Positions 1,930-58,360 of a stretch of DNA of 64,000 bases are shown here, one piece after another. Under the pieces are notes generated by a model. The model did not search any database, was not told the DNA's origin, and saw nothing but the letters and a program-made list of their open reading frames with translations. Source of the DNA: an uncultured Gammaproteobacteria bacterium. Lineage in GTDB: Bacteria > Patescibacteriota > Microgenomatia > Daviesbacterales > UBA10151. The position numbers and the translations under genes are program-made. Within the stretch, counting starts at the first letter, position 1, and each line of letters begins with the position of its first letter. The stretch lies in NCBI GenBank assembly GCA_964551605.1, contig CAZKCV010000006.1, positions 70 to 64,069 on the forward strand, written 5' to 3'.

Positions 1930-1936
1930 GGTGGGC

Positions 1937-3923: not shown

Positions 3924-6160
3924 CCCAGTCCCACCATTGTTTTTAGAAGTTCCGCTGACCAGCGGTAAACATTATTATTTTTGATTATTTCCCGCATATC
4001 CTGCATTCTCTTTGCTTGTTCCTTGGGTGGCATTTCCAGGGCTTCCCTGATTGCATCAGCAGTCTGTTCGCCGTTGTATGGGTTGACAATAAGGGCATCT
4101 TTAAGTTCTCTTGAGGCACCGGTATACTGGCTGAGTATTAAGACACCTTTATAGTCATCTCTTGCTGCTACATACTCCTTTGCCACTAAGTTCATCCCGT
4201 CATGCAATGATGTGATTAGACAAAAATCAGCTACCCGATAGAACTTTTGAAGTTCGGTGTGGTTATGGTGTTTTTTAAGAAATATAATCGGCTTCCACTT
4301 ACCCTTCTTAAACTGTGAGTTAATGCGTTCAACTTCTTTTTCAACTGCTTCAGCAAACTCGCTCATTTTCTTAATTTTACTTCTTGAGGGAGGAGCAATC
4401 TGGATAAAGGTAAAATTTGATTGATATTGGGGGTTTTCAGTCAGGAAAATTTCAATGGCCTTTAACCGTTCCAGAATGCCTTTAATGTAATCAAGCCTGT
4501 CAACTCCCAGCCCGATATATTTTGTTTTTATCCCCAGATTCTTAACCAGTGCATGGGATTCTTTTCTGTTATTTTCTATGGTTTGTTTATCCAGGCCATT
4601 ACCATTTGAAAAAGCAATACTGATGGGAAAAGGTTTAACAAACGATTTATGGTTATTTCTGGTAATGGCAAATTGCTCAAAATCTATTAATGACTCCAAT
4701 TCCCTGCCTACTGTTTCAATGAAATTATTGCAGTAAAGTTGAGTATGGAAACCGACTAAGTCGGCACCTAATATTCCTTCCAGGACTTCTCTTTTCCATG
4801 GACAAATACTAAAGGATTCCGGATTAGGCCAGGGAATATGCCAAAAAAGCCCGATAACCGCACTGGGCTTTTGCATTTTTACCATCCTTGGGACCAGGGC
4901 AAGTTGGTAATCCTGGATTAAAACAATTGGCCTTTCCTGTTTCCTGATCTCCGCCAGGATTGTTTTTGCAAATTTTTCATTTACTTTATAATACTGTTCC
5001 CAATCTTCTTTTCTAAAAGTCGGGCGGTTATGGGCATTATGGCAAAGCGGCCACAACCCCTCGTTAGAGAATCCAAAATAATATCCTGCCTCTTCTTCTT
5101 CGGTCAACCAAATCCGTTTGAGGGTGTATTTTGGTTCGTCAGGCGGAACTTTTAGCCTATTGTTTTTATCCACTACTAACTTATCCGCATCCCCGCTCCC
5201 GTTAGCTATCCACATGCCTCCGCATGCCTGCATTACAGGTTCGATTGCTGTGACAGGCCCGCTTGCCGGCATATAATAAGTGATCTTACCGTTGCTTTTT
5301 GTATGGATATAAGGTTCCCTGTTTGAAACCATAAAGATAGTCCTGCCCTTTAAAATGTCTTTGATAAATTCCTTCAGTCTTTCTGCTGTCCATGGAGAGT
5401 TAACTTCTTCAAGCCGGAGCCTGGCTTCTTCACTGGCTGTTGATCGTGCTTCCTGTAAGCTCCTTCTGATATTGGTAATTTCATTTACCAGAGGGCGGAA
5501 AAACAATGAATTAACGGGTCTTCTGGAATCCGGTTCCCGTTCTCCTGATCTTGCTACCTTAAGTGATTCAACGAGGCTTTTTATTGGTGTATAGATAAGC
5601 CATTTTATTAAAAGAAGGGTGGCCAGGGATAATAAAGAGGCCTGGATAAAGAGTCTGAATAAGTTGTTTTTCCAGATGTCTTCTATTCTGGTATTAATAT
5701 ATTCGGCATTTTGAGCAATCATTAATGCCCCAACTACACTTTCTTTGTCATGAAGAGGGGTTGCCAGCAAATATATTTTATTATTATTAAGCTCAATAAA
5801 ATCACCTGTAGCCTGGTCCAGGTCCATGGCGTCCGCGGCGGTTTGTTTTGCCTTAGGAATTTCTGAAGTCAGACTTGAAGAAGTAGCAACCGGGTTTGCC
5901 TTATTATCATAAATGTTCATCCCCACCAGTCTTTCTTTGTTTTCGAATCTATTTACCATAGATTGCAGTTGCTGGTCTGATTTATTGATAAAATTTGGTT
6001 CAACAGCCTCTTTTAAGCTTTCGGCCAGCAGGGTGGAACGAAATTCCAGATCACTCTTGAGCCTTTGTTCTTCCCGATAAACCTGGGAGGCAGTGAAAGC
6101 GACTACAATAAGAGTTATAATTACTACAATTACAGAGACCGCAATCAATAACTGTTTCAT
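3920..6160 (-). CDS. otsA: membrane-anchored sensor domain fused to trehalose-6-phosphate synthase (GT20)
   Basis: The N-terminus has TM1, a roughly 150-aa extracytoplasmic domain, TM2 and a linker. The GT20 core follows, with 'LFWHIPWPNPE' and 'HDGMNLVAKEY' signatures. Confidence 0.75.
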   Translation of the reverse strand: MKQLLIAVSVIVVIITLIVVAFTASQVYREEQRLKSDLEFRSTLLAESLKEAVEPNFINKSDQQLQSMVNRFENKERLVGMNIYDNKANPVATSSSLTSEIPKAKQTAADAMDLDQATGDFIELNNNKIYLLATPLHDKESVVGALMIAQNAEYINTRIEDIWKNNLFRLFIQASLLSLATLLLIKWLIYTPIKSLVESLKVARSGEREPDSRRPVNSLFFRPLVNEITNIRRSLQEARSTASEEARLRLEEVNSPWTAERLKEFIKDILKGRTIFMVSNREPYIHTKSNGKITYYMPASGPVTAIEPVMQACGGMWIANGSGDADKLVVDKNNRLKVPPDEPKYTLKRIWLTEEEEAGYYFGFSNEGLWPLCHNAHNRPTFRKEDWEQYYKVNEKFAKTILAEIRKQERPIVLIQDYQLALVPRMVKMQKPSAVIGLFWHIPWPNPESFSICPWKREVLEGILGADLVGFHTQLYCNNFIETVGRELESLIDFEQFAITRNNHKSFVKPFPISIAFSNGNGLDKQTIENNRKESHALVKNLGIKTKYIGLGVDRLDYIKGILERLKAIEIFLTENPQYQSNFTFIQIAPPSRSKIKKMSEFAEAVEKEVERINSQFKKGKWKPIIFLKKHHNHTELQKFYRVADFCLITSLHDGMNLVAKEYVAARDDYKGVLILSQYTGASRELKDALIVNPYNGEQTADAIREALEMPPKEQAKRMQDMREIIKNNNVYRWSAELLKTMVGLG

Positions 6161-16076: not shown

Positions 16077-16703
16077 CTATCTCTTTTTTCCAGCCCTTTT
16101 AGGCTTTATTTCACTCATGTATGCCGGACCGTATTTCCGGGAAGGCTCATGTCCGGTAATTTCTTCCGAAGTCCTGACAACTCTTAAGTTATCAGCTTCA
16201 AAATCACTCATAATCCTGCTTGCGGTATCTTCTCCTTCTTCTTCCTGTGTAGGGACAGCCACCAGGATGCCTCCTTCATTTATTCTTCTTTCATAAACCC
16301 CGGCTTCCTCATCAGTTAAGCCAAAGGTAGAGCCAATTGCTCCTAAAATACCTCCTGCTAAAGCTCCGGTAGCTGCGCCGGATGCAGTGGTAGCTGCTAC
16401 TCCGGTTAAGCCCAAAGCAGCGGCAATTGGTCCGCCGATAAATAACACTCCCAAACCAGGGATAGCAAAAGCAGCTACCAAGCCGGCAATTCCGCCGATG
16501 ACTGCCCCGGTGGTGGCGCCGCCTAAGGTGGCTCCGATGACTTCTCCGCCGCTATCTTCTAAGCGGCGGGATGCCCCGGCACCCCTCATTATAATGGACA
16601 TTTCTTTGGGATTAAAGCCATGTGATTCCAGCTCGGCAATGGCATCCTCCGCCTTATCCTTCTCGGAGAAAACTCCTAATACAACGCTTGCCATCTTTTT
16701 CAC
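16077..16703 (-). CDS. general-stress-like protein (YflT/DUF1269-like N-domain plus glycine-zipper membrane segment)
   Basis: 'VVLGVFSEKDKAEDAIAELESHGF' N-domain followed by long GxxxG/A-rich hydrophobic stretches. Confidence 0.4.
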   Translation of the reverse strand: MKKMASVVLGVFSEKDKAEDAIAELESHGFNPKEMSIIMRGAGASRRLEDSGGEVIGATLGGATTGAVIGGIAGLVAAFAIPGLGVLFIGGPIAAALGLTGVAATTASGAATGALAGGILGAIGSTFGLTDEEAGVYERRINEGGILVAVPTQEEEGEDTASRIMSDFEADNLRVVRTSEEITGHEPSRKYGPAYMSEIKPKRAGKKR

Positions 16704-16734
16704 CTCCTCGTAGAAATCATAACGCAGCTGCGCC

Positions 16735-16986
16735 CTAGCTTGTCCTTCCGGACGCTGCGCGCCGTATCTTTTTTACTCTCCGCTGGGCAGCCTGCAGAGT
16801 TTCTGACACTTTTTCTCTGGCCATATCTACCGTGTGAAAGACTGCGTCCCGGGTCTTTTTATTGGATAAAATGGCAGTAGCTGCAGCAGCAACTCCTGCT
16901 CCCACTGCAGCACCGGCTAAACCGGCCATAATCGGATTCATGCCTTTTTTTACATTACCGGAAGTATTCTCTTCCCCGTCGTTCAT
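16735..16986 (-). CDS. YtxH-like small membrane protein (paralog of 54909..55157)
   Basis: Gly/Ala-zipper TM ('MAGLAGAAVGAGVAAAATAIL') plus a basic coiled C-terminus. Confidence 0.45.
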   Translation of the reverse strand: MNDGEENTSGNVKKGMNPIMAGLAGAAVGAGVAAAATAILSNKKTRDAVFHTVDMAREKVSETLQAAQRRVKKIRRAASGRTS

Positions 16987-17068
16987 CTTTTCTCACCCCC
17001 TTTCGTAAATATTAACAGCGGTTTATTAAAGATTAATCAAATTAAGGTAAGAAATAGATATGACCCCT

Positions 17069-17320
17069 TCAAGGAAATGTGGGAGCGGTTGATGAAGGGA
17101 TTGGTGCAATATCAGGTGAAAAAGAAGGGAATCCCGGGCCTCCGCCTACCCCGGGCTGGACTCCGCCCGGAGTCTGGTTATTAAGCTGCGCAGCATATAA
17201 GAATAATCCAACGATCGCCAGTACCGATACGGCTGACAAAAGCGAGAACCAAAAGGTCCTACTATCAGCCTGTTCCGTTGATTCACTTTTTCCGTATCTA
17301 TCCGCATACTTATCTTCCAT
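17069..17320 (-). CDS. small membrane protein, Pro/Gly-rich tail
   Basis: One TM; no motif recognised. Confidence 0.3.
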   Translation of the reverse strand: MEDKYADRYGKSESTEQADSRTFWFSLLSAVSVLAIVGLFLYAAQLNNQTPGGVQPGVGGGPGFPSFSPDIAPIPSSTAPTFP

Positions 17321-17385
17321 ATACCTGCCATTATAGGAACAAAAGTTTATAAACCATTCAAAAATCCGCTAGAAAACTGTAAGAG

Positions 17386-18060
17386 TTAGCTGAAGAATCT
17401 GTAGTGCAGATGTTGCTTCCTGGCCAGGAGCGGAATAGCAGAAAACCAGCCGAATAAAAAGCCTCCGACATGGGACAAAAAAGCTATTCCACCTTCATTC
17501 GGGCTCATCGGGAATGAGGCTAAACCGCTAAAAAACTGGGTGATAAACCAGAAAAAAAGTAAAAAGTAAGCCGGGATATCTACAATGGTGACAAAAAAGA
17601 AGATAAAAATTAAAGTTTTAATCCTGCTTCTGGGGAAAAGGGCAAAATAGGCTCCCAATACTCCGGCTACAGCGCCGGAGGCACCCAGCATGGGGATGGA
17701 AGCTGTGGGTGTGGCCAGGTATTGGGCCAGGCCGGCTACCACTCCGGAGGCCAGATAAAAAACCGGAAACAGGAAAAAGCCTAAACTGACTTCCACATTA
17801 TTGCCGAATACCCACAAAAACAGCATGTTGGAGATGATGTGGATAAAGCCGCCGTGCAAGAATTGACTGCTGATTAAGGGTAAGGCGGTCCGAAAATCTG
17901 CCAGGTCCAGTAGGACCGGAATAAAGGCATACTGGAGAATAAAACCTTCCGGGCTGGCAGCAGTCAGCTCCAGGTAAAAAATGTAAATATTGACTAATAT
18001 GATGGCCACTACCCAAAAAGGAAACCTGGATAATGCATTGGTATCTTTTAAAGGAATCAT
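17386..18060 (-). CDS. rhomboid-family intramembrane serine protease
   Basis: 'GASGAVAGVLGAYF' (GxSG) and 'HGGFIHIISNMLFLWVFG' rhomboid motifs. Confidence 0.75.
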   Translation of the reverse strand: MIPLKDTNALSRFPFWVVAIILVNIYIFYLELTAASPEGFILQYAFIPVLLDLADFRTALPLISSQFLHGGFIHIISNMLFLWVFGNNVEVSLGFFLFPVFYLASGVVAGLAQYLATPTASIPMLGASGAVAGVLGAYFALFPRSRIKTLIFIFFFVTIVDIPAYFLLFFWFITQFFSGLASFPMSPNEGGIAFLSHVGGFLFGWFSAIPLLARKQHLHYRFFS

Positions 18061-18182
18061 GTAGCAAAATTATATGAAGACAGGATCAAGGTATGATAAG
18101 AGCCCGGTAAGAGTAGTGTATAGTTTCATCCTTGCCCTATAGTTATTGATTTAGCACTAGCTTAATGGTATAATTATAGGCT

Positions 18183-18671
18183 ATGATAGATACACTTGAA
18201 TGTGCATATTTAGCAGTACCGAAACCTGAGAAGATGGTAAAACTTAAGGTACAAACATTAGAGGCTCTTCTCCAGCCATTTGTAACCTGGAGTAGCGAAG
18301 ATCCCGGTGTGATAGTCAATACCGGTCCTTTTAAGGTCAGGCGAACTTACTTTACAGTATTGGCTTCAAATTTCCACCTGATCCAGATGTTTCGTATGAT
18401 TGGTGGTCTCCAGCTTAATAGGGATGTTGATGCATTTATTGATCAATATTCCCAAAAACAGTTTGGGGGGGTTTTGACAACCCGGACAGATATTCAAAAG
18501 GCAGATGATTTGACGTTCAGAGTACTGAGCCAGGTAGATAAGGACTTATTACTCAGGGCTGCAAAAAGATGCAGAATATCTGATGAAAGAATGTATGAAA
18601 TTTTCTATAGTCAGGCAGAAAGAATTTCTGAGATTGGGATTTCCGGATTTGCCTCTGTAGTTGCTGCCTAA
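18183..18671 (+). CDS. hypothetical protein
   Basis: 162-aa ORF. Confidence 0.35.
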   Translation: MIDTLECAYLAVPKPEKMVKLKVQTLEALLQPFVTWSSEDPGVIVNTGPFKVRRTYFTVLASNFHLIQMFRMIGGLQLNRDVDAFIDQYSQKQFGGVLTTRTDIQKADDLTFRVLSQVDKDLLLRAAKRCRISDERMYEIFYSQAERISEIGISGFASVVAA

Positions 18672-18672
18672 C

Positions 18673-19477
18673 TTTAGCTTTACACAGCTTTACACCCTCC
18701 GGGTGTTTTAGGTTGACACCCTTTCTCTATTATGTGTAAGATATGTTTATGGCCACACTTAGAAAGTTGGTGTTTCGTGAGGGTGAAGTCTATCATGTTT
18801 TTAACAGAGGGATAGAGCGAAGAACTACCTTTAGTGAGAAAAGAGAACTCGCAAGGATGCAGAAGCTGGTCAAATTTTATAGGCACAAAGATACTCCGGT
18901 CAGGTTTTCCCAGGTTATACAGAAACCTGAAGAGACCAGAGAGAAGTTACTGGCTGCTCTTTATAAGAGTGAAAGGGCAGTAGATATCCTAAGTTACTGC
19001 CTGATGCCCAATCATTTTCATTTTTTGCTTAAACAAAACACAGACAAAGGGATTTCCTCTTTTATATCTAATATCACAAATGGCTATACTAAATATTTTA
19101 ATACAAGATATGAAAGGATGGGTCCCCTATTTGAAGGTGTTTTTAAGGCAGTTCATATTGAAAGCGATGAGCAGTTGGTTCATGTCTCCAGGTACATCCA
19201 CCTAAACCCAGTGGTTTCCGGTGTGATACCGGATAATGAGCTTGAAAGTTACCCTTGGTCATCCTATCCGGAATATTTATCTTTATCCAACTTGGAAATA
19301 TCGCAGACAGATTTAATTTTAAGCATGTTCAAAACGATAAAAGCCTACCAGGAATTTGTTAACAATCAAATAGATTACGGTAAACAGCTGGAAGTTATCA
19401 AACATCTTACTTTAGAATGATATTCTAATTGAAGAATAGGTGTAAAGCTATATCACCCTCCGGGTGTAGCCTTAGTT
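18673..19477 (+). mobile_element. IS200/IS605-like minimal element (Y1 transposase flanked by subterminal hairpins)
   Basis: The left end carries the 48-bp block TTTAGCTTTACACAGCTTTACACCCTCCGGGTG..TTAGGTTGACACC. The right end carries GTGTAAAGCTA plus the same CACCCTCCGGGTG hairpin, then CCTTAGTT. Confidence 0.55.
18743..19420 (+). CDS. tnpA: Y1 HUH transposase (IS200/IS605 TnpA / RAYT-like)
   Basis: 'CLMPNHFHFLL' HUH motif and 'VSRYIHLNP' catalytic Tyr motif. Confidence 0.7.
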   Translation: MFMATLRKLVFREGEVYHVFNRGIERRTTFSEKRELARMQKLVKFYRHKDTPVRFSQVIQKPEETREKLLAALYKSERAVDILSYCLMPNHFHFLLKQNTDKGISSFISNITNGYTKYFNTRYERMGPLFEGVFKAVHIESDEQLVHVSRYIHLNPVVSGVIPDNELESYPWSSYPEYLSLSNLEISQTDLILSMFKTIKAYQEFVNNQIDYGKQLEVIKHLTLE

Positions 19478-25986: not shown

Positions 25987-26925
25987 ATGGATATTGTAAC
26001 CATTATTTTAGTAGTCGGAGGGCTGGTTTTATTCGAAACAGTTTCTTCCATTGATAACGCAGTTATTAATGCCGAGGTTCTTTCCACCATGAGCAGGAAA
26101 GCCAGAAGATGGTTTCTGCTCTGGGGACTGCTGATTGCAGTTTTTCTGCTTCGGGGAGCTTTGCCCTGGGCTATTGTCTGGGCTGTTAATCCGGGTTTGG
26201 GTCCGATTGGATCATTTACTGCTGCTTTAAGTTCTGACCCGGCGGTGGCAGAGGCCATTGAGGGCTCCAAGCACATCCTGCTTTCGGGTGGAGGCATATT
26301 TTTAGTTTTTTTGTTTTTCCATTGGCTGTTCCTGGAATCGAAAAACTTCGGCCTGCGGGGTGAGCGGTTTTTCCAGCGGCAGGGTGTCTGGTTTTATGCA
26401 GTAGTGTCTCTGATTTTGGCAGGAGTAGTCTGGTTTTCCATAAATAAGGATCCGTTCATGGCTTTCGGAGCAGTCTTAGGTTCAACTGCTTTTTTTATTA
26501 CCCACGGGTTTAAGGAGAATGCCAGACAGGCTGAAGAACAGATGCTTCACAACAAAGATACCGGATTGTCTGACATGAGCAAGATTTTTTACCTGGAAGT
26601 GATAGATGCGACTTTTTCCATTGATGGTGTGGTAGGAGCCTTTGCTTTTACCCTGTCCGTGCCCTTAATTTTGCTGGGAAACGGCATTGGGGCTTTGGTA
26701 GTCAGGCAACTGACGGTTTCCAATATAGACAGGATCAAGAAATATATTTACCTAAAAAACGGTGCTATGTACTCTATCTTTTTCTTAGGATCAATTATGC
26801 TGGCAGACAGCTTTGGACTGCATATCCCAGCCTGGTTGTCTCCGGTGGTGACTGCGGTGGTAATTGCTTATTTCTTCCTAAAATCAAAACGATCGCTGGT
26901 TGACACCTTGAAGGTGTCAACCTAA
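25987..26925 (+). CDS. TerC/DUF475-like integral membrane protein
   Basis: 'ETVSSIDNAVINA' resembles the TerC 'E..LSVDNA' motif; multi-TM. The last 8 codons lie inside a REP-like hairpin. Confidence 0.4.
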   Translation: MDIVTIILVVGGLVLFETVSSIDNAVINAEVLSTMSRKARRWFLLWGLLIAVFLLRGALPWAIVWAVNPGLGPIGSFTAALSSDPAVAEAIEGSKHILLSGGGIFLVFLFFHWLFLESKNFGLRGERFFQRQGVWFYAVVSLILAGVVWFSINKDPFMAFGAVLGSTAFFITHGFKENARQAEEQMLHNKDTGLSDMSKIFYLEVIDATFSIDGVVGAFAFTLSVPLILLGNGIGALVVRQLTVSNIDRIKKYIYLKNGAMYSIFFLGSIMLADSFGLHIPAWLSPVVTAVVIAYFFLKSKRSLVDTLKVST

Positions 26926-26960
26926 CCCACCCCCGGGGTGGGATACGCACACACCGTAGG
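26898..26960. repeat. REP-like composite: GGTTGACACC-TTGAA-GGTGTCAACC hairpin plus CCCACCCCCGGGGTGGG hairpin
   Basis: Read directly. It provides the C-terminal codons and stop of the preceding gene. Confidence 0.6.
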
Positions 26961-26965
26961 GGATA

Positions 26966-28660
26966 TCACCAGAAGTAATTATTTCTGACTTCAATTCCGA
27001 ACAGGGCATTTCCCAGCGGGCTTTGCGGGAAAAGGGCTAACCCGGCCCTGGCGAATTTTTCAGCAGCTTCCGTATTTCCTGTCTGTCCCAGGAAAAGTGA
27101 TAGCCTAAGATATGAAAGATAAGAAGATCTTGCCCCTCCGGGGTAAAAATCAAATTGATAGTTAGCCGGATCTAATTTTGATAAGTCAATAGACTCCAAG
27201 GTGTCCCCTTGAAAGGCCAGAGCATCATTTTTTACCAGAACTATCATAAAATCATCCAAATAAACTGTTTTCCAATCCGGGTTTTTGATAATGGAAACTA
27301 AAAAGGCTTTACCCCAGGGGGTTTGGTCAGTATGGGAAAAGATAATAGTCCTAAAGCCGATTTTTTCGTCAAGCTGCTTAAACTTTTCAGGTTCATATTG
27401 GGCTGGGATATAAACTTGCTGGAAAAATTCCTTCGGGTATTCCCCTGGTCTTCCATCCACAAAGATCCGGTATTTTGGCCAGCCACGGTAGGTAATGTAG
27501 CTTCCGATATCAAAATTATTAAAAACAGGCTGCGATAAATTATTTTTTAGGGCAAAATCAAGGGCGCCTTTACCATTTTCTTCGAATTGAAGCAGCGGCC
27601 TGGTGCTGCTGCCGGTATATTTATAATAATCCCCGTTTAGGTAAAAAAAACTTTCCAGAAGCAGCAACGGTACCGTCACCCAGACCAGCATTTTAAGAGG
27701 GCGGGCTGGACGGAAAGCTCCAAAATTTTCCAGCACTGCCGGGAGTGAGATTAAAGCCAAATAAGGAAAGCTCCTGACATTCATCAAAGCCAGTACCATG
27801 CCTAGACCGGCCAGGCCCAGATTCTTTATTGTTAATCCTTTCTTGAATAGGGCTACACAAACTGAAAGTACAATAATGGCTATGGCAATCTTGACAAACA
27901 GGAAATTAGGATCCCGGAAGTTAATACTTTCGAGAAGAAACATGGTTTGGTTTTCCACAATGGTATAGCCGTAGTTTTGGTTAAAGGTTAAAGGATTCAG
28001 GAATCCTTTGAGGCCGCTGGGATTAATTAAGCTGGCCCCAACCGATAGTCCAAAAATTATCCCCAGTATTTTTAGCTTTACACCCTTGGGGTGTAATCGA
28101 AAGTATTGGTACCCCAGGTGAATCAGGTAAATAGCCTGGAGAAATAAACCTAACATAAAATAGATATGGCTATTGACCCAGATTAGCTGGACAACCGGCA
28201 GGGCAAAAATTAGCTTGGTTTTTGTCTTCTCAAATTTACTCAGGATATAAAGAGTAAGTCCGGTAAAAAGAAAGCTTAATATTTCCGGGCGGAAGTCCGG
28301 CCGCTCCCGTAAAGTATGTAAGAAAAGAAAACCAATAGGTAAAAGCAGATATTGGTTTTTAGGTGTGGTTTTTAAGACAAACCAGACAGCCAGCAGGATA
28401 ATGACCACTTTTAAAATAAGTAATGCCTGCAGGCCGATTGTCTGCTGGCCCAAAAAGACTAGAACCTCAAACAGCCAGTGGCTATTAATAAAGGGAAAAT
28501 CAGGATAAGTGTAGGAAAACAGGTTGGTTAAAGGTACGGTTTTGGTTTGTAAGATAATTTCCCCTAATTTTAAGTGCCGGCCTAAGTCCTGGTTAAAGGA
28601 ATCATCGGTTCGGAAAAGGAAAGAAAAAACGAAAAATAACAGGAGAATTTTAATCCACAT
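26966..28660 (-). CDS. polytopic membrane protein (GT-C-like; possible C-terminal TPR)
   Basis: 564 aa, more than 10 TM helices and a soluble C-terminus. Confidence 0.4.
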   Translation of the reverse strand: MWIKILLLFFVFSFLFRTDDSFNQDLGRHLKLGEIILQTKTVPLTNLFSYTYPDFPFINSHWLFEVLVFLGQQTIGLQALLILKVVIILLAVWFVLKTTPKNQYLLLPIGFLFLHTLRERPDFRPEILSFLFTGLTLYILSKFEKTKTKLIFALPVVQLIWVNSHIYFMLGLFLQAIYLIHLGYQYFRLHPKGVKLKILGIIFGLSVGASLINPSGLKGFLNPLTFNQNYGYTIVENQTMFLLESINFRDPNFLFVKIAIAIIVLSVCVALFKKGLTIKNLGLAGLGMVLALMNVRSFPYLALISLPAVLENFGAFRPARPLKMLVWVTVPLLLLESFFYLNGDYYKYTGSSTRPLLQFEENGKGALDFALKNNLSQPVFNNFDIGSYITYRGWPKYRIFVDGRPGEYPKEFFQQVYIPAQYEPEKFKQLDEKIGFRTIIFSHTDQTPWGKAFLVSIIKNPDWKTVYLDDFMIVLVKNDALAFQGDTLESIDLSKLDPANYQFDFYPGGARSSYLSYLRLSLFLGQTGNTEAAEKFARAGLALFPQSPLGNALFGIEVRNNYFW

Positions 28661-28683
28661 TAAAAAATTGTATCACAGACCAT

Positions 28684-28716
28684 TACGCGATTTAATGCGC
28701 GATTATTGCGCGATTT
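28684..28716 (+). promoter_or_regulatory. three direct (T)TGCGCGAT repeats plus an extended -10 (TGGTATAAT) upstream of Fic gene 1
   Basis: ACGCGAT / TGCGCGAT / TGCGCGAT read directly; TGGTATAAT at 28718-28726. Confidence 0.45.
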
Positions 28717-28734: not shown

Positions 28735-29793
28735 ATGTTTGAACCGCGATACAACATTACCACTCTGACCCTTTCCCGGATTGCTGAAATTGCCGAGATA
28801 AAAGCGGCCGTTGAAAGGTCCCGCGTTTTGCCCTTAAATGAAGCTCAACTGAGGCGCCAGGCAATTCTGCGGATGGCCCATACCTCCACGTCAATTGAGG
28901 GAAATAAATTAGCTGAATTTGAAGTGGGGAAAGTCCTGGAAGGAAAGTCTGTCCGGGCGACCCAAAAGGATATTGTAGAGGTGGAAAACTACTACCAGGC
29001 CCTAAAGCTGATTGAGAAAATGGCCAGGGAAAAAGGCAATATAACGGTGGCGGAAATATTAAAATTACACAAGGCGGTGGTTGAAGGACTGGTGGAAAAT
29101 GAGAAAGTCGGGAGTTTCAGACCGGCTGATGTTTATGTATTGGATGATTTGGGAGACGGCCGGGAAATGTTAAGGTTTAAGGCCCCCCCTGCTTCCGGGG
29201 TTGAAAAAATGATAGAGGATTTAATGGCCTGGCTTAGATCATCAAAAAAAACAGGTATCCACCCGATTATCCGGGCCGGTATTTTGCACCTGCAGTTTGT
29301 CACCATCCACCCTTTTACAGACGGCAACGGCCGGGTGGCCAGACTCTTGACCCAGCTTCAGCTTTACCGGGACGGCTGGGATTTTCGGAAAATTTTGGTG
29401 CTGGAGGACTATTATAACCAGGACCGGATGTCTTATTATAATGCGGAAAACCGGGCCCAGGGAAAAACTTACCAGGAGGACATGGATTTTACCAACTGGC
29501 TGGAATACTTTACCACCGGGTTTTTGGTGGAAGCCAGAAAGGTTTTGGAACAAATCCAGTCAATAGGGTTTGGTAAAGTCAGCAGGAAGAGCGAGCAGAT
29601 CTTTTTAGACCGGGATGAGATTCAGGTAATGGATTTTTTGACTACTACAGGCAGGATTACCTCAGATGATGTGGCAGATATCTTAAAAGTAGCCAAAAGG
29701 ACTGCCCAGCTTAAGCTTAAGAATTTATCGGATAAGGGTCTGCTTAAATTAAAAGGCAAAGGCCCCAGCTCTTATTATATCCTTGCGCGATAG
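28735..29793 (+). CDS. Fic family protein (class II, N-terminal inhibitory helix; C-terminal wHTH)
   Basis: 'HPFTDGNGRVAR' Fic motif and 'STSIEGN' inhibitory motif. Confidence 0.8.
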   Translation: MFEPRYNITTLTLSRIAEIAEIKAAVERSRVLPLNEAQLRRQAILRMAHTSTSIEGNKLAEFEVGKVLEGKSVRATQKDIVEVENYYQALKLIEKMAREKGNITVAEILKLHKAVVEGLVENEKVGSFRPADVYVLDDLGDGREMLRFKAPPASGVEKMIEDLMAWLRSSKKTGIHPIIRAGILHLQFVTIHPFTDGNGRVARLLTQLQLYRDGWDFRKILVLEDYYNQDRMSYYNAENRAQGKTYQEDMDFTNWLEYFTTGFLVEARKVLEQIQSIGFGKVSRKSEQIFLDRDEIQVMDFLTTTGRITSDDVADILKVAKRTAQLKLKNLSDKGLLKLKGKGPSSYYILAR

Positions 29794-29890
29794 GTTGCGC
29801 GATTATTGCGCGATAGCCACCACTTGCTATTTACAAAAAAATATGAAACAATTAGTTTGTGAGTAGAGTGTATTTAGTGTTTATACAGTA

Positions 29891-33144: not shown

Positions 33145-33218
33145 GCGGGTGTAATTCACCGGTAGAATGTCACTTTTCCAAAGTGAACGTAAGGGGTCCG
33201 ACTCCCCTCACCCGCTCC
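33145..33218 (+). tRNA. tRNA-Gly (anticodon TCC), CCA encoded
   Basis: Acceptor GCGGGTG/CACCCGC, anticodon loop TTTCCAA, T-arm AGGGG-TCCGACT-CCCCT, discriminator T plus CCA. Confidence 0.75.
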
Positions 33219-33250
33219 AGACGAATTTTATCGAACTGACAAATTTTAGC

Positions 33251-33279
33251 TTCAAAAAATTGCTGAATTTTGCTATAAT
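33251..33279 (+). promoter_or_regulatory. consensus-like sigma70 promoter (TTCAAA-17-TGcTATAAT)
   Basis: Read directly; it fires rightwards, antisense to the small ORF 33331..33495. Confidence 0.5.
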
Positions 33280-33330
33280 CTAGGCTTATAACGTATTACC
33301 TTAACAGGAATCGAACTAGCCTTAATTTTA

Positions 33331-33495
33331 TTATTTCTCATCTTGCTCAACTTCTTCAAAATCTCCCATCCACTTTGACCCATAGACATGTTGCATAACA
33401 GCACAAGCTAACAAATATACAACTTCCTGTATGTCTTTTAGCTCTTCTTCCGAAGCATTAGGGTAATATTTTTTAATTACTTCCAAAGGTAACAT
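33331..33495 (-). CDS. 54-aa acidic protein (paralog of 35201..35365); not in the supplied ORF track
   Basis: Translates to MLPLEVIKKYYPNASEEELKDIQEVVYLLACAVMQHVYGSKWMGDFEEVEQDEK. Strong SD (AAGGAGG) 8 nt upstream; about 75% identical to copy 2. Confidence 0.45.
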   Translation of the reverse strand: MLPLEVIKKYYPNASEEELKDIQEVVYLLACAVMQHVYGSKWMGDFEEVEQDEK

Positions 33496-34956: not shown

Positions 34957-34967
34957 TGAATGAATTT

Positions 34968-35093
34968 CTGATATGCATACTTATACAGTTTTTAGTTCTA
35001 AGGCGTAGACTAAATCTGGTAACAGACCGTCAGATAGGAATAATCTGATGAATTCTGGCAGTCTGGCTAAGATCACGTCAGGAGCTCCATACG
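34968..35093. repeat. noncoding segment X, duplicated at 36570-36707 (about 85% identity)
   Basis: Shared strings include GAATTTCTGATATGCATA..., GACCGTCAGATAGGAA and GAATTCTGGCAGTCTGGCTAAGA..GTCAGGAGCTCCATACG. Confidence 0.6.
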
Positions 35094-35215
35094 AATTTTA
35101 TTGAAATAACAAACTTTAGCTTCAAAAAATTGCTAAAATTTGTCGAAATTTAATCCTATAACATAGGACCACAACGGGAATCGAACTAGCCTTAAGCTTG
35201 TTATTTCTCTTCTAG
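35094..35215. repeat. noncoding segment Y, duplicate of 33219-33345 (follows tRNA-Gly in copy 1)
   Basis: ACGAATTTTAT..TTAGCTTCAAAAAATTGCT...GGAATCGAACTAGCCTTAA conserved in both copies. Confidence 0.6.
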
Positions 35216-35365
35216 GACGGGTTCATCAAAATCTCCCATCCATTTCGACCCATAAAATTCTTGCATAACAGCACATGCCAATAAATAAACAACCTCTTGG
35301 ATATCTTTTAGCTCTTCTTCTGAAACATCGGGATAGTATTTTCTTATTTCTTCCATAGGTAGCAT
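35201..35365 (-). CDS. 54-aa acidic protein (paralog of 33331..33495)
   Basis: The track ORF 35201..35401 is trimmed to the Met preceded by AAGGTGGTGA. Sequence MLPMEEIRKYYPDVSEEELKDIQEVVYLLACAVMQEFYGSKWMGDFDEPVLEEK. Confidence 0.45.
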   Translation of the reverse strand: MLPMEEIRKYYPDVSEEELKDIQEVVYLLACAVMQEFYGSKWMGDFDEPVLEEK

Positions 35366-36381: not shown

Positions 36382-36569
36382 CTAACTTAAGAATACACAA
36401 GATTTTTAGCATCACCAGATATTCAAAAACTGAAAATGTGTCGTACAAGTTTGAGTATATTAATGTATAATTATTTTTACCGAATGATCCTTGTGGTGAA
36501 AGTACCTTACTATTAGGGAGCTAATGTTGACATCATAATCGATGATTCATCTTGGCCACGAGGATCGAA

Positions 36570-36707
36570 TTTCTGATATGCATATTTATGCATTTTTTAG
36601 ACCTAAGGCATAGACGAAGTCAGGTAGTAGACCGTCAGATAGGAACATTTTGAAGAATTCTGGCAGTCTGGCTAAGACCTCGTCAGGAGCTCCATACGGA
36701 ATACCCT
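36570..36707. repeat. noncoding segment X, copy 2
   Basis: See 34968-35093. Confidence 0.6.
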
Positions 36708-44300: not shown

Positions 44301-44348
44301 TTTAGCTTTACACAGCTTTACACCCTCCGGGTGGTTTAGGTTTACACC
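44301..44348. repeat. 48-bp copy (46/48) of the left-end block of the 18673 element
   Basis: TTTAGCTTTACACAGCTTTACACCCTCCGGGTGGTTTAGGTTTACACC, 20 bp downstream of the tRNA-Arg 3' end. Confidence 0.7.
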
Positions 44349-44368
44349 TATTCTTTATTTAAGATTTG

Positions 44369-44441: not shown

Positions 44442-44575
44442 AAGGTCGCACTGACTATTTTAACAATTTAGGGCTAATTAAGCAAAGCTGATACAATTCA
44501 CCTCAAGAATATCCCACCTGGGGGGTGGATTTCTACGTTCGCCAGTTGGCGAAGGAAAGCTTTGCTTATTGACAC

Positions 44576-45526
44576 CTAAGGTTTCTGGAGATTCTGGATA
44601 TGGACAATTAATTTCTTAAGGCCCTCTTCTAATTCAACCTTCGGTTCCCAGCCTAATCTTCTGGCTTTGGTAATGTCCGGGCAGCGTCTGACCGGGTCAT
44701 CCTCCGGCAGGCTTTCTACAGATTCAACTTCAGAAGAGGCGTTGGTGATTTTTTTAACAATTTCCGCCAGTTCCAGAATAGTGAATTCATTTGGGTTTCC
44801 CAGGTTATAAACTTCACCTTTTTCTCCCCTATCCATGACTGTGATCATCCCGTCTATTAAATCCGACACATAGCAGAAGGATCTGGTCTGCTTACCGTCG
44901 CCAAAAACCGGAAAAGGTTTATTCTGCAAAGCAGCCATCACAAATTCAATCACCACCCGGCCGTCCCGGGCCATTCTGGGGCCATAAGTATTAAAGATCC
45001 TGATGATCCTGCCGTCCAGCTTTTGCAGGCGCACAAAAGCAGAAGTAATAGTCTCACCAAACCTTTTGGACTCATCATAAACAGACCTGGGCCCGGTAGT
45101 GGAAACATTCCCCCGGTAGCTTTCTTTCTGGGGATGCTCCAGAGGATCTCCGTAAATCTCGGAAGTGGAAGCAAATAAAAACTTGGCTCCCCGTTTCAGC
45201 GCCTCTTCGCATAAGCTCCAGGTGCCGAAGGAATTAACCTGCATGGTTTCAAAAGGCAGGGTAATATAGCTTTGGGGGTTGTTTTTATTAGGGGAGGCCG
45301 GAGAGGCCAGATGATAGATTTGGTCAAAATCCAGATCTTCCGGAAACGGTTCCGAGGCTTCAGCTTCTATAAATTGAAAATCCGGGCTGTTTTGCAGATG
45401 GGCAATGTTATCTAAAGAACCGGTTAAGAGGTTATCTACACAAATTACCTGGTCACCTCTTTCAATTAATCTGTCACATAGGTGTGATCCTAAAAATCCG
45501 GCTCCGCCTGTTACAATAACTTTCAT
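44576..45526 (-). CDS. UDP-glucuronate decarboxylase (UDP-xylose synthase)-like SDR
   Basis: 'VTGGAGFLGSHL' Rossmann motif and 'YDESKRFGE' YxxxK. Confidence 0.7.
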   Translation of the reverse strand: MKVIVTGGAGFLGSHLCDRLIERGDQVICVDNLLTGSLDNIAHLQNSPDFQFIEAEASEPFPEDLDFDQIYHLASPASPNKNNPQSYITLPFETMQVNSFGTWSLCEEALKRGAKFLFASTSEIYGDPLEHPQKESYRGNVSTTGPRSVYDESKRFGETITSAFVRLQKLDGRIIRIFNTYGPRMARDGRVVIEFVMAALQNKPFPVFGDGKQTRSFCYVSDLIDGMITVMDRGEKGEVYNLGNPNEFTILELAEIVKKITNASSEVESVESLPEDDPVRRCPDITKARRLGWEPKVELEEGLKKLIVHIQNLQKP

Positions 45527-45561: not shown

Positions 45562-46860
45562 TTAAAGCTTAAACCTCCTATCAGCCAGAAAGGGATTAGG
45601 CTTGCGGCGGATTCCTGGTGAGGTTAGCAGGATGCCGCGCTGCAGGGTAAATTCTCCGTATTTGTCATTAATTTTATCCAAAGCCCGGGTGATAATTTCC
45701 TTTCTTTTAACTTCCGGCAAAAAGCTTAAATTCTGGGGAGTTTGTGGTCTAAGGTTGGAAACAGACAGACCTATCATCCTGATCTTTTCACCAGTCCAGA
45801 TTTGGTGAAAAATTTTCCAGGCTGCCTGAAAGATTTCCAGGCCGTCATTGGTAAAATGAATGGTGGTTTGCATGCTGTCACCGGAGAATACGTTCTCACG
45901 GTGTGCGGCTATCCCACCCCTGGGGTGGGATAGGTTGACACCGTATAGATCTAAAGCCTTTCTGTACCAGCAGTGGATGGTTTTACCGACCAGTCTTTTA
46001 GCCCTCAGTCTTCTGGCTACCATTTCTGAAAGTTTCAGTATGATTTGTTTAATCTCGGCCGGATTGTTTGTATCATGGCTAATGGTATGCCGGTGCCCGA
46101 TACTTTTTACCTCTCCTTTTTCGTAGAAAGGAATAATCGGTGAATGGTCAATACCCCTGGCCATGTTATACAGAATTTGGCCGTAACTTTTAAAGGAAGC
46201 CAGTAAGCTTGCTAAAGGTGCTTGCCTGAGCTGGTAAAAATTAGATATCCCTAAGTTATTAAGCCTTTTTTTAATCCGGGAGCCGATGCCGCAGATTTCA
46301 TCCAGCTCAATCCGGTCCAGAATTTTAATGGCCTCTTCCTGATTAGGAATGATTACTAAACCATCAGGTTTTTGTAGGGATCCGGCCAGCTTGGCCATTA
46401 ATTTGTTATAAGAGATGCCGATGGAACAAGTTATCACTTCACCAATTTCACTTCGAATTCTTCTTTTAATATCTAAAGCCATCGGTATAACATTGTGAGA
46501 AGATGTTTCTAAAAAACACTCATCTATAGAAAACACCTCTAGTTTTGAGCTGTAGTCTTTTAAGATATTTATAAATCTTTTGGTAGTTTCCAGATACTTA
46601 TCAGAATCCCCCGGTACCAAAATAATTTGCGGACAAAGCTTGCGGGCTTCCCAAATCTGCATCCCGGTTTTAACCCCATATTTCTTGGCCTCTACGGAAG
46701 CTGCACCTAAGACTGTTCTTTTCATTCTATCCCCTCCGGTTACTCCAATAGGTTTTCCCCGCAGCCTGGGGTTTGCCTGCTGTTCCACTGAAGCAAAATA
46801 AGAATTGAAGTCAATGTGTAATATAGCTTTCATAAGCTTGCCCTTGTCAAAAATTGTCAT
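45562..46860 (-). CDS. dinB: Y-family DNA polymerase (DinB/Pol IV-like) with an extra insert
   Basis: 'ILHIDFNSYFASVE' and 'SIDECFLE' catalytic motifs. At 432 aa it is longer than typical Pol IV. Confidence 0.75.
   Translation of the reverse strand: MTIFDKGKLMKAILHIDFNSYFASVEQQANPRLRGKPIGVTGGDRMKRTVLGAASVEAKKYGVKTGMQIWEARKLCPQIILVPGDSDKYLETTKRFINILKDYSSKLEVFSIDECFLETSSHNVIPMALDIKRRIRSEIGEVITCSIGISYNKLMAKLAGSLQKPDGLVIIPNQEEAIKILDRIELDEICGIGSRIKKRLNNLGISNFYQLRQAPLASLLASFKSYGQILYNMARGIDHSPIIPFYEKGEVKSIGHRHTISHDTNNPAEIKQIILKLSEMVARRLRAKRLVGKTIHCWYRKALDLYGVNLSHPRGGIAAHRENVFSGDSMQTTIHFTNDGLEIFQAAWKIFHQIWTGEKIRMIGLSVSNLRPQTPQNLSFLPEVKRKEIITRALDKINDKYGEFTLQRGILLTSPGIRRKPNPFLADRRFKL
45911..45946. repeat. 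REP-like element (TCCCACCCCTGGGGTGGGA hairpin plus TAGGTTGACACCGTA) inside the dinB coding sequence
   Basis: Read directly; in frame it encodes 'YGVNLSHPRGGIA'. Confidence 0.6.
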
Positions 46861-48949: not shown

Positions 48950-49138
48950 GAGGGCAATACTTCCGGGGTGGGCTTTGACTCCCCGGAGGTGGAGTGAAGT
49001 TGCTATATTTTGACCTATTTCGTCATAGTTGACGGATGTGTAATTTAGATGTAAAGTGATTAGACCTGTTAAAAACTTTGAGTCGCAAGACAATTAGTTT
49101 TTTATCAGTCGTAAGACAGATATTAACAGGTTCTCTAA

Positions 49139-49164
49139 GGAAGCTCCGCAAGGAGCTTTTTTAG
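49139..49164 (+). terminator. intrinsic terminator (AAGCTCC-GCAA-GGAGCTT followed by TTTTT)
   Basis: Read directly. Confidence 0.5.
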
Positions 49165-49251
49165 TGGCGTAGCCGCGAAATTTATTTCAGTGCGTAGCGC
49201 CACCTGTGGAGAATTAAAGAATAAACTGTTAAAATAGGTATAGGTAGAAAT

Positions 49252-53908: not shown

Positions 53909-54877
53909 ATGAATTTCTGGCAAAAGCTCAAAAAGCCTTTTTTTATTTTAGCCCCTATGGATGGGGTAACTGATACGGTTTTCCGGCAGATTGTAGCCTC
54001 TGTGGGTAAACCGGACGTGTTTTTAACCGAATTTGTACCGGTTGATGCCTTAATGTCGAAGCACTCTGAGAGGGCTTTGGAAACCCTAAAATTTACAGAA
54101 TCTGAAAGGCCGATGGTAGCCCAAATCTGGGGGTCTGAACCGGAGAAGTTTTACAAAGTAGCCCAAATGCTTGCCCAAATGAAATTTGATGGCATAGATA
54201 TCAATATGGGCTGTCCGGATAAAGCTGCGGTAAGAAAAGGCGGCTGTTCTGCTTTAATTAAAAATCCCCAACTGGCTGTAGAGATTATTGAGGCCACCAT
54301 CAAAGGAGCCGGTGGTTTGCCTGTCAGTGTGAAAACCAGGATCGGTTTTAGCAGCATTGATACTGAAAACTGGGTTACCTCCCTGCTGCAAACCCCTATT
54401 TCAGCTTTAATTCTGCACCTTCGGACAGTCAGGGAAATGTCCAAACCTCCGGCTCATTGGGATGAAATCAGTAAAGCCGTTCTGGTCAGAAATAAAATCA
54501 AATCCAAAGCCCTCATTATTGGCAATGGGGATATAAAAAGCCTTAAAGAGGCCAGAGATAAGTGTCTGGAATACGGAATAGACGGAGTAATGATAGGCCG
54601 GGGTATTTTTGAAAATCCCTGGGTTTTCAATGAAAAAATAGATATAGAGAAAGTTTCCCGGGAAGATAAAATAGCTTTGTTTGTCAGACACCTGGAACTA
54701 TATAAAACAGTCTGGGGGCAAAAGAAAAACTTTGCCAACATGAAAAAATTTGTTAAAACCTATGTCAAAGGCTTCAGGGAAGCCACCGAAGTCCGGGAAG
54801 ATTTAATGCGGACTAAAAGCATTGATGAATTAATCCAAAAATCCCAACTAACCCACCCCCGGGGTGGGTTAGGTTGA
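53909..54877 (+). CDS. dus: tRNA-dihydrouridine synthase
   Basis: 'ILAPMDGVTD' plus a TIM-barrel FMN-site Cys. The C-terminus 'LTHPRGGLG*' is encoded by a REP-like element. Confidence 0.8.
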   Translation: MNFWQKLKKPFFILAPMDGVTDTVFRQIVASVGKPDVFLTEFVPVDALMSKHSERALETLKFTESERPMVAQIWGSEPEKFYKVAQMLAQMKFDGIDINMGCPDKAAVRKGGCSALIKNPQLAVEIIEATIKGAGGLPVSVKTRIGFSSIDTENWVTSLLQTPISALILHLRTVREMSKPPAHWDEISKAVLVRNKIKSKALIIGNGDIKSLKEARDKCLEYGIDGVMIGRGIFENPWVFNEKIDIEKVSREDKIALFVRHLELYKTVWGQKKNFANMKKFVKTYVKGFREATEVREDLMRTKSIDELIQKSQLTHPRGGLG

Positions 54878-54885
54878 CACCGTAC
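54849..54885. repeat. REP-like element (CCCACCCCCGGGGTGGG plus TTAGGTTGACACCGTA) overlapping the dus stop
   Basis: Read directly. Confidence 0.6.
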
Positions 54886-57479: not shown

Positions 57480-57489
57480 GTTTTAATCC

Positions 57490-58273
57490 AACCCCCGGTG
57501 TTAGATAGCTTCAAACCTAAGGATTATTCCAGGGTTAGATGTTTTATCCTATTAAGTTGTCTTTGGTAATCTGCTTGGTCTAATACAAACTGATAATATC
57601 TCTCTGAGCTTTTGCAGAAATTCAGTATGTCTCTTGTTTGTATAAATGGGTATATCGCACCTGCATTTAGGTAGGTTCCGAAGGAAGACCACTTATATTC
57701 TAATAATTTTTCAGGTTCAACTATATAATCGGTAGCAGGGTTTAGGTGTATATACCTGGAGACATGCAACAACTGTTCATCCGTCACAATCCTGACCGCC
57801 TTAAACATAGATTGAAATAATGGGCCAACCCGTTCATTTTTAATATTTAAGTATTTGGCATAACCGTTTTGTAAATTAGACAGGAAAACAGAAATCCCTT
57901 TTTCTGTTAATTGTTTCAATAAAAAATGAAAATGATTGGGCATTAGACAAAAAGCTAGTATTTCTACATGAGTCTTATTTTCTTTCTTTAATCCCTCTAA
58001 AATTTTCTCTCTGAGATCTCTCGGCATCTTCTTGAATTGAGAAAAACTGGTAGGTGTATCAACAAAACGGTAATAGTCAACTAATTCCAGGAACCTTTGA
58101 TAATCGCTATTAGAATAAAATATTGGTAAAGCTGCTACTCCTCTATTATAGACATGGTAAATCTGATCCTGAGCCAGGATGACTTTTCTATATGGCATAT
58201 CCCCATATTATCAGAGTTGTTAACTTTTTCAAGAGTTAATCCTTAGGTTGGAACGTAACTAACACCCGGTGTT
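57490..58273 (-). mobile_element. IS200/IS605-like minimal element 2 (hairpin-IR ... IR-hairpin)
   Basis: AACCCCCGGTGTT (57490-57502) plus AACCTAAGG (57514-57522) on the left. CCTTAGGTT (58241-58249) plus AACACCCGGTGTT (58261-58273) on the right. Confidence 0.55.
57524..58198 (-). CDS. tnpA: Y1 HUH transposase (paralog of 18743..19420)
   Basis: 'CLMPNHFHFLL', 'VSRYIHLNP', shared C-terminal 'IKHLTLE'. Confidence 0.7.
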   Translation of the reverse strand: MPYRKVILAQDQIYHVYNRGVAALPIFYSNSDYQRFLELVDYYRFVDTPTSFSQFKKMPRDLREKILEGLKKENKTHVEILAFCLMPNHFHFLLKQLTEKGISVFLSNLQNGYAKYLNIKNERVGPLFQSMFKAVRIVTDEQLLHVSRYIHLNPATDYIVEPEKLLEYKWSSFGTYLNAGAIYPFIQTRDILNFCKSSERYYQFVLDQADYQRQLNRIKHLTLE

Positions 58274-58360
58274 GGAGATTTGTTGCTGGAGGTTTTAGGC
58301 CTTACTTTTTTGTTACCCAATATTGATATAAACCTTATCCTTATCCTGTAGCATTTCTTT

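Follow-up and report, generated by a model that had tools for sequence, protein, structure and literature searches.

A hairpin-plus-tail repeat family, probably REP-like, brackets RAYT-like Y1/HUH genes in a Patescibacteria genome

Systems that associate repetitive extragenic palindromes (REPs) with a REP-associated tyrosine transposase (RAYT) are known chiefly from Proteobacteria, Cyanobacteria and Bacteroidetes. We analyze here a family of short palindromic repeats, and the Y1/HUH genes that they flank, in a stretch of 64,000 nt (contig CAZKCV010000006.1 of assembly GCA_964551605.1, positions 70 to 64,069), hereafter called the window. It belongs to a ~1-Mb candidate phyla radiation (CPR) genome, Candidatus Daviesbacteria, with several RAYT-like paralogues that have their own hairpins and one common tail. 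The closest known system is the REP/RAYT association, or REPtron (Nunvar 2010, PMC2817692; Bertels & Rainey 2011, PMC3116915; Messing 2012, PMC3479197), whose TnpA-REP enzyme is a Mn-dependent monomer that recognises the REP hairpin together with a conserved foot (PMC3479197). Among other Y1 families, IS200 TnpA is a protein of ~150 amino acids (aa) with a Y-x3-Q motif (PMC6006769, Table 1), and Y1 genes outside insertion sequences (IS) are reported to favour large genomes (PMC6006769). According to Quentin et al., no REP-like structures adjoin the genes of TnpAY1 subclass 2.1 (PMC6006769), and in the TIRYT/TIRtron literature the Y1 genes are flanked by inverted repeats with a GGGGWSAS motif. 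Compared with these systems, the repeats of the window are best explained, with a probability that we place at about three in four, as REP-like DNA repeats of a RAYT-like Y1/HUH nuclease family.

Each unit is made of a short GC-rich hairpin, whose sequence varies by lineage and paralogue, and of a conserved 12-nt tail, TAG(G/C)TT(G/T)(A/G)CACC. The original prediction, made on the letters of the window, had quoted several of these sequences, all of which are present where it placed them, and had proposed that a covariance model be built from the copies. Such a model, trained on 40 hairpin-plus-tail units, recovered nine full units in the window with E values of 3e-13 to 4e-8, four of them bracketing two Y1/HUH genes and five standing alone as orphans. 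Its further matches were two weaker "left feet", on the strand opposite to that of the elements called type A below, and two hairpins only, at 28079-28097 and 44513-44531. The tail TAGGTTGACACC, allowing two mismatches, occurs 11 times in the window (3.0 ± 1.7 expected from shuffles), and the GC hairpin CCCACCCCNGGGGTGGG four times (0.2 expected). When both parts were required side by side, as a degenerate tail next to a GC hairpin, the count was eight, and 200 shuffles that preserved dinucleotides averaged 0.11 and never exceeded 1. A search of the window against Rfam returned tRNAs only, and no family for the repeat units. The hairpin followed by TAGGTTGACACC is a real repeat, of the recognition type that brackets domesticated RAYT-like Y1 genes.

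Upon alignment of the 40 units by their tail, 38 were gapless and two were shifted by one base; the 5' flanks are variable and the 3' tail is conserved. The tail begins 10 nt after the hairpin axis, irrespective of stem sequence, stem length (5 to 8 bp) and loop length (1 to 5 nt). Invariant positions are found both in the stem core, which consists of A-T and C-G pairs (..AC...GT..), and in the tail (the A, the TT and the ACC). Double-sided changes were seen in five of the seven stem pairs, and the covariation test counted 29 double-change cells where 12.3 were expected. The largest form, the type A full element, is an imperfect palindrome of ~49 nt, TACGGTGT-GTGCG-TAT-CCCACCCC-N-GGGGTGGG-ATA-GGTTG-ACACCGTA, in which an outer stem TACGGTGT/ACACCGTA is separated from a GC stem by a 5x5 internal loop, and whose predicted folding energy as single-stranded DNA (ssDNA) is -19.8 kcal/mol (z -6.0). 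It is seen at 45898-45946 and 26898-26958, the copy at 54849-54884 being a half element. The left hairpin arm and a few preceding bases are moreover tandemly reiterated, in two to four copies, upstream of many units, for example as two AGCTTTACAC at 18676-18695, as up to four copies in genome JAHJSD01, and as a 17-nt duplication in locus L119; reiterations were noted at L006 (~506-550), L011 (~4940-4990) and L119 (~2140-2180). An extra left-arm copy was found upstream in 11 of 56 units, and downstream in 3.

On either side of each Y1 gene of the window stands a unit with its tail directed into the gene, as in a REPtron. Gene 1 (18749-19420, + strand), with a start codon probably at 18749, encodes a RAYT-like protein of 223 aa carrying the motifs NHFH and RYIHLNP. 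Its upstream unit, of type B (18673-18723, +; 43.5 bits with the covariance model), comprises two copies of AGCTTTACAC, the hairpin ACACCC-TCC-GGGTGT and the tail TAGGTTGACACC, and its downstream unit (19436-19472, -; 36.3 bits) comprises the hairpin CACCC-GGA-GGGTG and the tail TAGCTTTACACC, pointing into the gene. Gene 2 (57524-58198, -), a diverged paralogue of 224 aa sharing 50% identity with gene 1, lies between an upstream unit (58243-58279, -; 34.2 bits), in which CCAACACC-G-GGTGTTAG is followed by the tail TACGTTCCAACC, and a downstream unit (57484-57520, +; 38.6 bits) made of an imperfect hairpin and the tail TAGCTTCAAACC.

The same layout was found in relatives. Eighty metagenome loci with homologues at 33-60% identity were fetched, and 59 were examined: at most of them both flanks share an inverted, locus-specific hairpin, which is followed by the tail in homologues above ~42% identity. 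On the co-occurrence with Y1 genes across related genomes, which the original prediction had suggested looking at, 29 of 30 model matches (E<=1e-3, in 368 kb), including all 14 that were not seeds of the model, fall within 150 nt of a Y1 gene end, mostly pointing inward. Three non-seed loci from named genomes (one in JACOXH01, and two paralogues in JACPKP01) have inward matches on both flanks, namely six above 30 bits, plus two lower-scoring ones that overlap them on the other strand, and the 28.8 kb of these loci contain no model match away from the Y1 flanks.

A further case comes from JAHJSD010000044.1, where the type A repeat CACACCCCCGGGGTGGGTTAGGTTGACACC stands at either end of a Y1 gene. 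As this repeat is present in at least 13 copies (13-15) in the JAHJSD01 genome, the flanking repeat is also the dispersed repeat, which is the defining REPtron situation. Scanning one genome per species for GGGTGGGNTAGGTTGACACC (19 specified bases) gave 26 matches in 25 loci: four Daviesbacteria species account for 8 of them, JAHJSD01 and the related CAZWLF01 for 17, and a Chloroflexota for 1. The latter has no hairpin and was rejected as a family member, being a match of the kind given by chance, of which ~4 are expected by our own arithmetic for 19 bases in 1.2e12 positions. As to CAZWLF01 (loci L004, L012, L013, L018 and L023), it is labelled "uncultured Gammaproteobacteria", and is syntenic with the Patescibacteria genome JAHJSD01 at 82-88% nucleotide identity; judging from these sequences, the label is probably wrong.

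The product of gene 1 matches the Pfam Y1_Tnp domain (E 3.7e-10). Its HUH motif NHFH and its Tyr motif RYIHLNP are conserved or near-invariant among 26 aligned homologues, and by these motifs the Y1 proteins read as carriers of the class 2 (RAYT-type) Y-x3-NP signature. The AlphaFold model (pLDDT 90.6) has a helical C-terminal region, residues 162-222, and its best match in a fold search of the PDB was 4ER8_A, which is E. coli TnpA-REP in complex with a REP hairpin (E 7.7e-7, TM 0.65 on target), followed by the TnpA proteins of IS608 and ISDra2. A PDB search by sequence gave weak ISDra2 matches only, and it took the fold search to connect the protein with 4ER8. In the C-terminal part, neither an HTH nor a DnaA_C domain of Pfam (Bac_DnaA_C, HTH_23 and HTH_28 were sought) was matched even at E<=5. 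An exact look-up of the protein gave no database record; more than 7,800 homologues were found at E<1e-5, mostly of 223-225 aa, and the named ones belong to Daviesbacteria, Levybacteria, Microgenomates or Patescibacteria. This RAYT-like Y1/HUH nuclease family is widespread in Patescibacteria. The top homologue, 92% identical, is found in the Candidatus Daviesbacteria genome JACPDA01 at a syntenic position, the two species sharing ~79% nucleotide identity, and gene 1 is vertically inherited. JACPDA01 has two more Y1 paralogues, R3 and R4, and R4 is absent from the syntenic site of the window, a caveat for the description of these genes as low-copy and vertically inherited. The original prediction had taken the units for REP- or MITE-like satellites (MITE being short for miniature inverted-repeat transposable element) in a REPIN/RAYT-like relationship with Y1 transposases. 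The REP/RAYT part of this claim is supported by the bracketing, by the JAHJSD01 case, and by the motifs, the NCBIfam family discussed below and the fold; REPIN doublets were not seen among the orphans of the window.

The five orphans occupy gene 3' ends, where the repeat supplies the stop codon, intergenic positions and, occasionally, in-frame positions inside genes. The type A half element at 54849-54884 (+), TAA-CCCACCCC-C-GGGGTGGG-T-TAGGTTGACACC-GTA (48.9 bits, E 1.9e-12), overlaps the 3' end of dus, whose stop is the TGA within TTGACACC. The full type A element at 45898-45946 (+), a "double foot" with the conserved foot on both sides, supported by a model match and by its ssDNA fold, lies in frame inside the minus-strand dinB gene, as part of a 63-nt insert encoding LDLYGVNLSHPRGGIAAHREN. 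The other full type A element (26898-26958, -; 51.7 bits) has an extra tail/anti-tail hairpin, GGTTGACACC-TTGAA-GGTGTCAACC, and stands between a TerC-family gene and a convergent gene of 564 aa, the TerC stop being the TAA of CCTAA. A type B orphan (44301-44351, +; 43.8 bits), which shares 92% identity with the unit upstream of gene 1, sits immediately after the 3' end of a tRNA-Arg gene, between it and a histidine-kinase gene. The fifth orphan (1903-1939, -; 41.1 bits), with the hairpin GCCCACCT-TCC-AGGTGGAC and the tail TAGCTTGGCACC, overlaps the stop codon of a 396-aa open reading frame (ORF; 1937-3127, -). Adjoining this unit, positions 1785-1874 are a perfect tandem duplication of 45 nt.

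Less regular copies were also seen. At the 3' end of an epimerase gene (44510-44581, -), a degenerate unit with the hairpin ATCCACCCCCCAGGTGGGAT and the foot TTGACACCTAAGG (read on the + strand) was detected as a hairpin-only model match (E 0.03); a ~35-nt insert with its own hairpin splits hairpin from foot, which are contiguous at the orthologous site of L114, a locus of JACPDA01. A possible in-frame relic, of uncertain membership, lies in the 564-aa ORF at 28073-28100 (+; E 0.025), where TAGCTTTACACC-CTTGG-GGTGTAA encodes RLHPKGVKLK. Its hairpin, TTACACCC-TTGG-GGTGTAA, preceded by the tail-like TAGCTT, is kept in the JACPDA01 orthologue and recurs in noncoding DNA of L114 near tRNA-Arg.

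With respect to the elements first listed, the original prediction had the positions right and the extents too short, the full elements being longer, as the ~49-nt type A palindrome illustrates. Its list lacked the units 1903-1939 (-) and 19436-19472 (-), as well as the second Y1 gene (57524-58198, -) and both its flanks (57484-57520 and 58243-58279). Of the two degenerate relatives that it named, 44512-44581 is real and corresponds to the interrupted unit at the epimerase gene. The other, 48961-48990, is merely an insertion relative to the orthologous site, and was left unassigned, having no model match at E<=10. Two blocks had been described as associated with a transposase: 18692-18720 is indeed part of the upstream unit of gene 1, and 44323-44348 has a histidine kinase and tRNA-Arg as neighbours instead.

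Comparison of orthologous sites indicates that copies were gained or lost. No repeat stands at the orthologous dus 3' ends of L114 and L115, which come from two further Daviesbacteria and in which the protein has a different end, and the 63-nt in-frame insert of dinB is absent from four orthologues (P0122, P0128, P0163 and P0201). At the same dinB site, other species have different hairpins translated as HPRGG-like peptides, and inverted hairpin doublets occur inside dinB of L114 and L116 only. Conversely, some copies are old, since the TerC copy is orthologous in JACPDA01, JAQUSJ01 and JAQTPP01, and the tRNA-Arg copy (44301-44351) is orthologous at L114 13933-13969. As a candidate for the mobile unit we considered the loop with the right arm and the tail, which would insert on the 3' side of an ACACC target; filled and empty sites at dinB and dus gave it no support, and their flanks are too diverged to define insert boundaries. 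Other rearrangements were observed near these sites. Immediately on the 5' side of the unit upstream of gene 1 is a 2.6-kb block (16098-18691) with four small ORFs and the gene of a rhomboid protease; the sister genome (compared at L026 9868-9943) lacks this block, which forms an indel abutting the repeat. In other Daviesbacteria, dinB is hypervariable at a second insertion site, which follows FSIDECFLE (columns ~135-180 of alignment A2) and is lacking in the dinB of the window; its peptides, such as VIASPEGAWQSS or VIARSETTKQS, look like another translated palindromic repeat family. In JACPDA01 (L114 13226-13935), tRNA-Arg is followed by an insert of ~640 bp, set between duplicated copies of the tRNA 3' end, TCCCTCCGGGGGCGCA; a type B unit lies just beyond, and the insert looks like an integrated element with a tRNA attachment site.

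The tail has a second property, visible upstream of the Y1 genes. Before gene 1, a -35 hexamer TTGACA (18713-18718) is followed, after an 18-nt spacer, by a -10 hexamer TAAGAT (18737-18742), and the ATG at 18749 comes six bases later. About 17 of 21 loci with TTGACA in the upstream tail have a -10-like hexamer after 16-18 nt and an ATG 6-10 nt further on, so the upstream tail is probably, on this sequence pattern, the -35 box of a leaderless Y1 promoter. Among the units examined, upstream tails mostly contain TTGACA, and downstream tails TTGGCA, TTTACA or TTCAAA, with the exception of the TTGACA downstream in L117.

Are the units anything more than composition or expression signals? A chance product of a CCGG- and GGTG-rich genome could invoke the abundance of short CACC/GGTG words and the fact that some low-scoring model matches are noise. 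It can be set aside as having next to no probability: it is already refuted by the tail-plus-hairpin count (8 units against 0.11) and by the covariance model matches, the window contains near-identical copies 33-59 nt long, and exact 19-base matches occur in six Patescibacteria genomes, next to the single hairpin-less match that is likely due to chance. The units might otherwise be host expression signals, hairpins acting as terminators and tails as -35 boxes or operators, the link with Y1 reflecting only the Y1 promoter and involving no mobility. The good promoter that TTGACA and the -10 box form upstream of most Y1 genes, the GC-rich hairpins, some of which precede a T-rich stretch and are called terminator-like, and the location of most orphans at gene 3' ends would all suit this explanation. 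We nevertheless judge it quite improbable. An inverted unit is also present downstream of the Y1 genes, where no promoter is needed, and one orphan is in frame inside dinB. The orphan tails, read directly in the window, are followed by no -10 box and by no suitably oriented gene, for which reason their role as promoters of neighbouring genes was rejected. In addition, identical units of 30-49 nt are found at unrelated loci, and across species whose surrounding sequences are 70-80% identical, and the presence of copies differs between orthologous sites.

Another explanation starts from mobility, and holds that the Y1 genes and their flanks are autonomous insertion sequences of the IS200/IS605 type, the orphans being MITE-like derivatives of their ends. 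The Y1_Tnp domain and the hairpin-bearing flanks on both sides are expected of such elements; R4, which JACPDA01 has and the window lacks at the syntenic position, and homologues at 65-74% identity in unrelated gene neighbourhoods also speak for it, as do several loci whose flank sequences show asymmetric loops in the same strand orientation on both sides, as at IS608 ends. What makes it unlikely is, on the protein side, a Tyr motif of the Y-x3-NP type (class 2, RAYT) and not the Y-x3-Q of IS200 (PMC6006769, Table 1), and a length of 223 aa against ~150 aa for IS200 TnpA. On the genomic side, no near-identical gene copies were found, the two paralogues of the window being only 50% identical, gene 1 is syntenic between species with ~79% nucleotide identity, no TnpB domain is present among neighbouring ORFs, and the flanks are inverted hairpin-plus-tail repeats rather than distinct left and right ends. 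The original prediction had spoken of IS ends; because the Y1 paralogues are that diverged and gene 1 occupies a syntenic site in the sister species, the flanks are not IS ends.

Several points weigh against reading the units as REP-like repeats of a RAYT-like enzyme. The only NCBIfam family matched by the two Y1 proteins, which is also the best, is REP_Tyr_transpos (NF047646), with scores of 50.8 and 46.9 bits that lie below the curated RAYT cut-off of 80. Canonical REPs have a 5' GT[AG]G foot, which was not found on the 5' side of the hairpin in the 40-unit alignment; the units have instead a 3' tail of 12 nt at a fixed offset of 10 nt. The system works like a REP/RAYT REPtron, and fails on this foot and on the curated NCBIfam score. 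As for pairing, 87.5% of the cells of the alignment are paired, against 77% after shuffling and 34-54% with the partner slid, a fraction inflated by the choice of units with a stem of at least 5 bp; the informative points are therefore the diversity of the stems and their fixed register, not the percentage of pairs. Folded as ssDNA, the hairpins on the two sides of gene 2 are weak. Part of the conservation of the upstream tail reflects the promoter, and the promoter role alone could account for it; this role leaves the downstream units, the orphans and the in-frame copy unexplained. Copy numbers are low, with a handful per 64 kb (five orphans in the window, 1-2 per 21 kb in the sister genome) where classical REPs number in the hundreds per genome (classically >100), and 42 kb from two other Daviesbacteria loci contain zero units, so that the family is unevenly spread in the group. 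Neither Y1 gene of the window bears a type A hairpin, and the cognate enzyme of type A is therefore not in the window. Lastly, the unit upstream of gene 1 shows no variation among five assemblies of the JACPDA01 population, and it is from presence/absence differences between species that we infer mobilisation of the units by the Y1 protein.

Taking the units as REP-like repeats, a mechanism may be proposed. From the enriched and bracketing repeats, the covarying hairpins, the RAYT-like protein and the differences in copy presence, all directly observed, we infer binding, cleavage, mobilisation and autoregulation by the Y1 protein. By analogy with IS200/IS605 TnpA and with E. coli TnpA-REP, this protein would bind the hairpin extruded on single-stranded DNA, and would read the tail, at its fixed offset, as a guide or cleavage motif. 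It would then cut and rejoin single strands, so that a unit would occasionally be copied or removed. Depending on the strand that is read, the tail would act as a 3' extension or, on the other strand, as a 5' foot comparable to GTAG. As the upstream tail includes TTGACA, the Y1 binding site would overlap the Y1 promoter, and autoregulation would therefore be possible.

Three other features of the window are recorded here. Between a 610-aa gene and tRNA-His, a noncoding block of ~170 nt (48998-49170, +), conserved at ~88% with JACPDA01 (L114 7872-7695), contains two GUCG(C/U)AAGAC hairpins within a long stem and ends with an intrinsic terminator; it has no Rfam match at E<=1 and is, on its sequence, a candidate small RNA. 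Triple T(T/G)GCGCGAT motifs (28683-28714 and 29783-29814) flank a Fic-domain gene (28735-29793), and could be operator-like. Dispersed direct repeats, 33203-33495 / 35073-35365 (79%) and 34962-35093 / 36567-36698 (87%), start from the 3' end of a tRNA-Gly gene, and may be remnants of duplicated or integrated DNA.

In the PMC open-access and bioRxiv literature, we found no paper linking REP or RAYT with Patescibacteria. If our reading is correct, the REP/RAYT association extends to this group, Y1 proteins resembling subclass 2.1 gain a clear DNA partner, and a simple bipartite site becomes available for biochemical work. It would also mean that such repeats alter coding sequences (dinB, dus and the TerC-family gene) even in streamlined genomes.

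How does the locus compare with the neighbouring Y1 systems? With IS200/IS605 elements (IS608, ISDra2) it shares the Y1/HUH catalytic core and, by analogy, subterminal hairpins recognised as ssDNA, with a motif at fixed distance from the hairpin that recalls the guide and cleavage sites of IS608. It differs from them by its NP-type instead of Q-type Tyr motif, by the lack of tnpB and of multi-copy identical elements, by flanks that are inverted copies, and by a vertically inherited gene 1. The protein is closest in its motifs to TnpAY1 subclass 2.1 (Quentin 2018, PMC6006769; Bertels group 1, PMC5581495), an assignment that was made by motifs set against Table 1 of PMC6006769 and not with the authors' hidden Markov models: NH[YF]H, F[EQ] replacing WQ, and Y[IV]HLNP are those of its second variant. 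At 223 aa (median 238) it is also long, and its C-terminal extension is helical. Unlike the description of that subclass, clear dispersed hairpin units are present here. TIRYT/TIRtron elements (Di Nocera 2013, PMC3733652) likewise have inverted repeats at a roughly constant distance, some of which form small dispersed families. Their GGGGWSAS motif is unmatched here, the closest strings being GGGTGTCA and GGTGTCAA, and the inward-strand flanks, which read GGGTGTCAAC or GGTGTAAAGC, do not fit it either.

The strongest resemblance is to REP/RAYT. In both cases, a diverged, single-copy-like Y1/HUH gene with Y-x3-NP is bracketed by inverted palindromic repeats that are also dispersed, several paralogues per genome have each their own hairpin, copies are mostly extragenic at gene 3' ends and occasionally intragenic in frame, and the closest match to the predicted fold is 4ER8. 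The differences, beyond those weighed above, are a single tail common to paralogues that are only ~50% identical, orphans that in the window are singlets or "double-foot" palindromes and not the doublets of REPINs, and a host with a CPR genome of ~1 Mb. Some of these features may prove to mark a distinct variant of REP/RAYT. A bolder proposal, which we regard as tentative and rather doubtful, would make of it a distinct REP-type system: a large Patescibacteria-centred Y1 family would recognise a fast-evolving hairpin and an invariant 12-nt tail at a 10-nt offset, and the tail, doubling as the -35 box of a leaderless promoter, would couple recognition with expression. The same activity would seed in-frame insertions in dinB, stop-codon replacements and left-arm reiterations, and would thereby shape ultra-small genomes.

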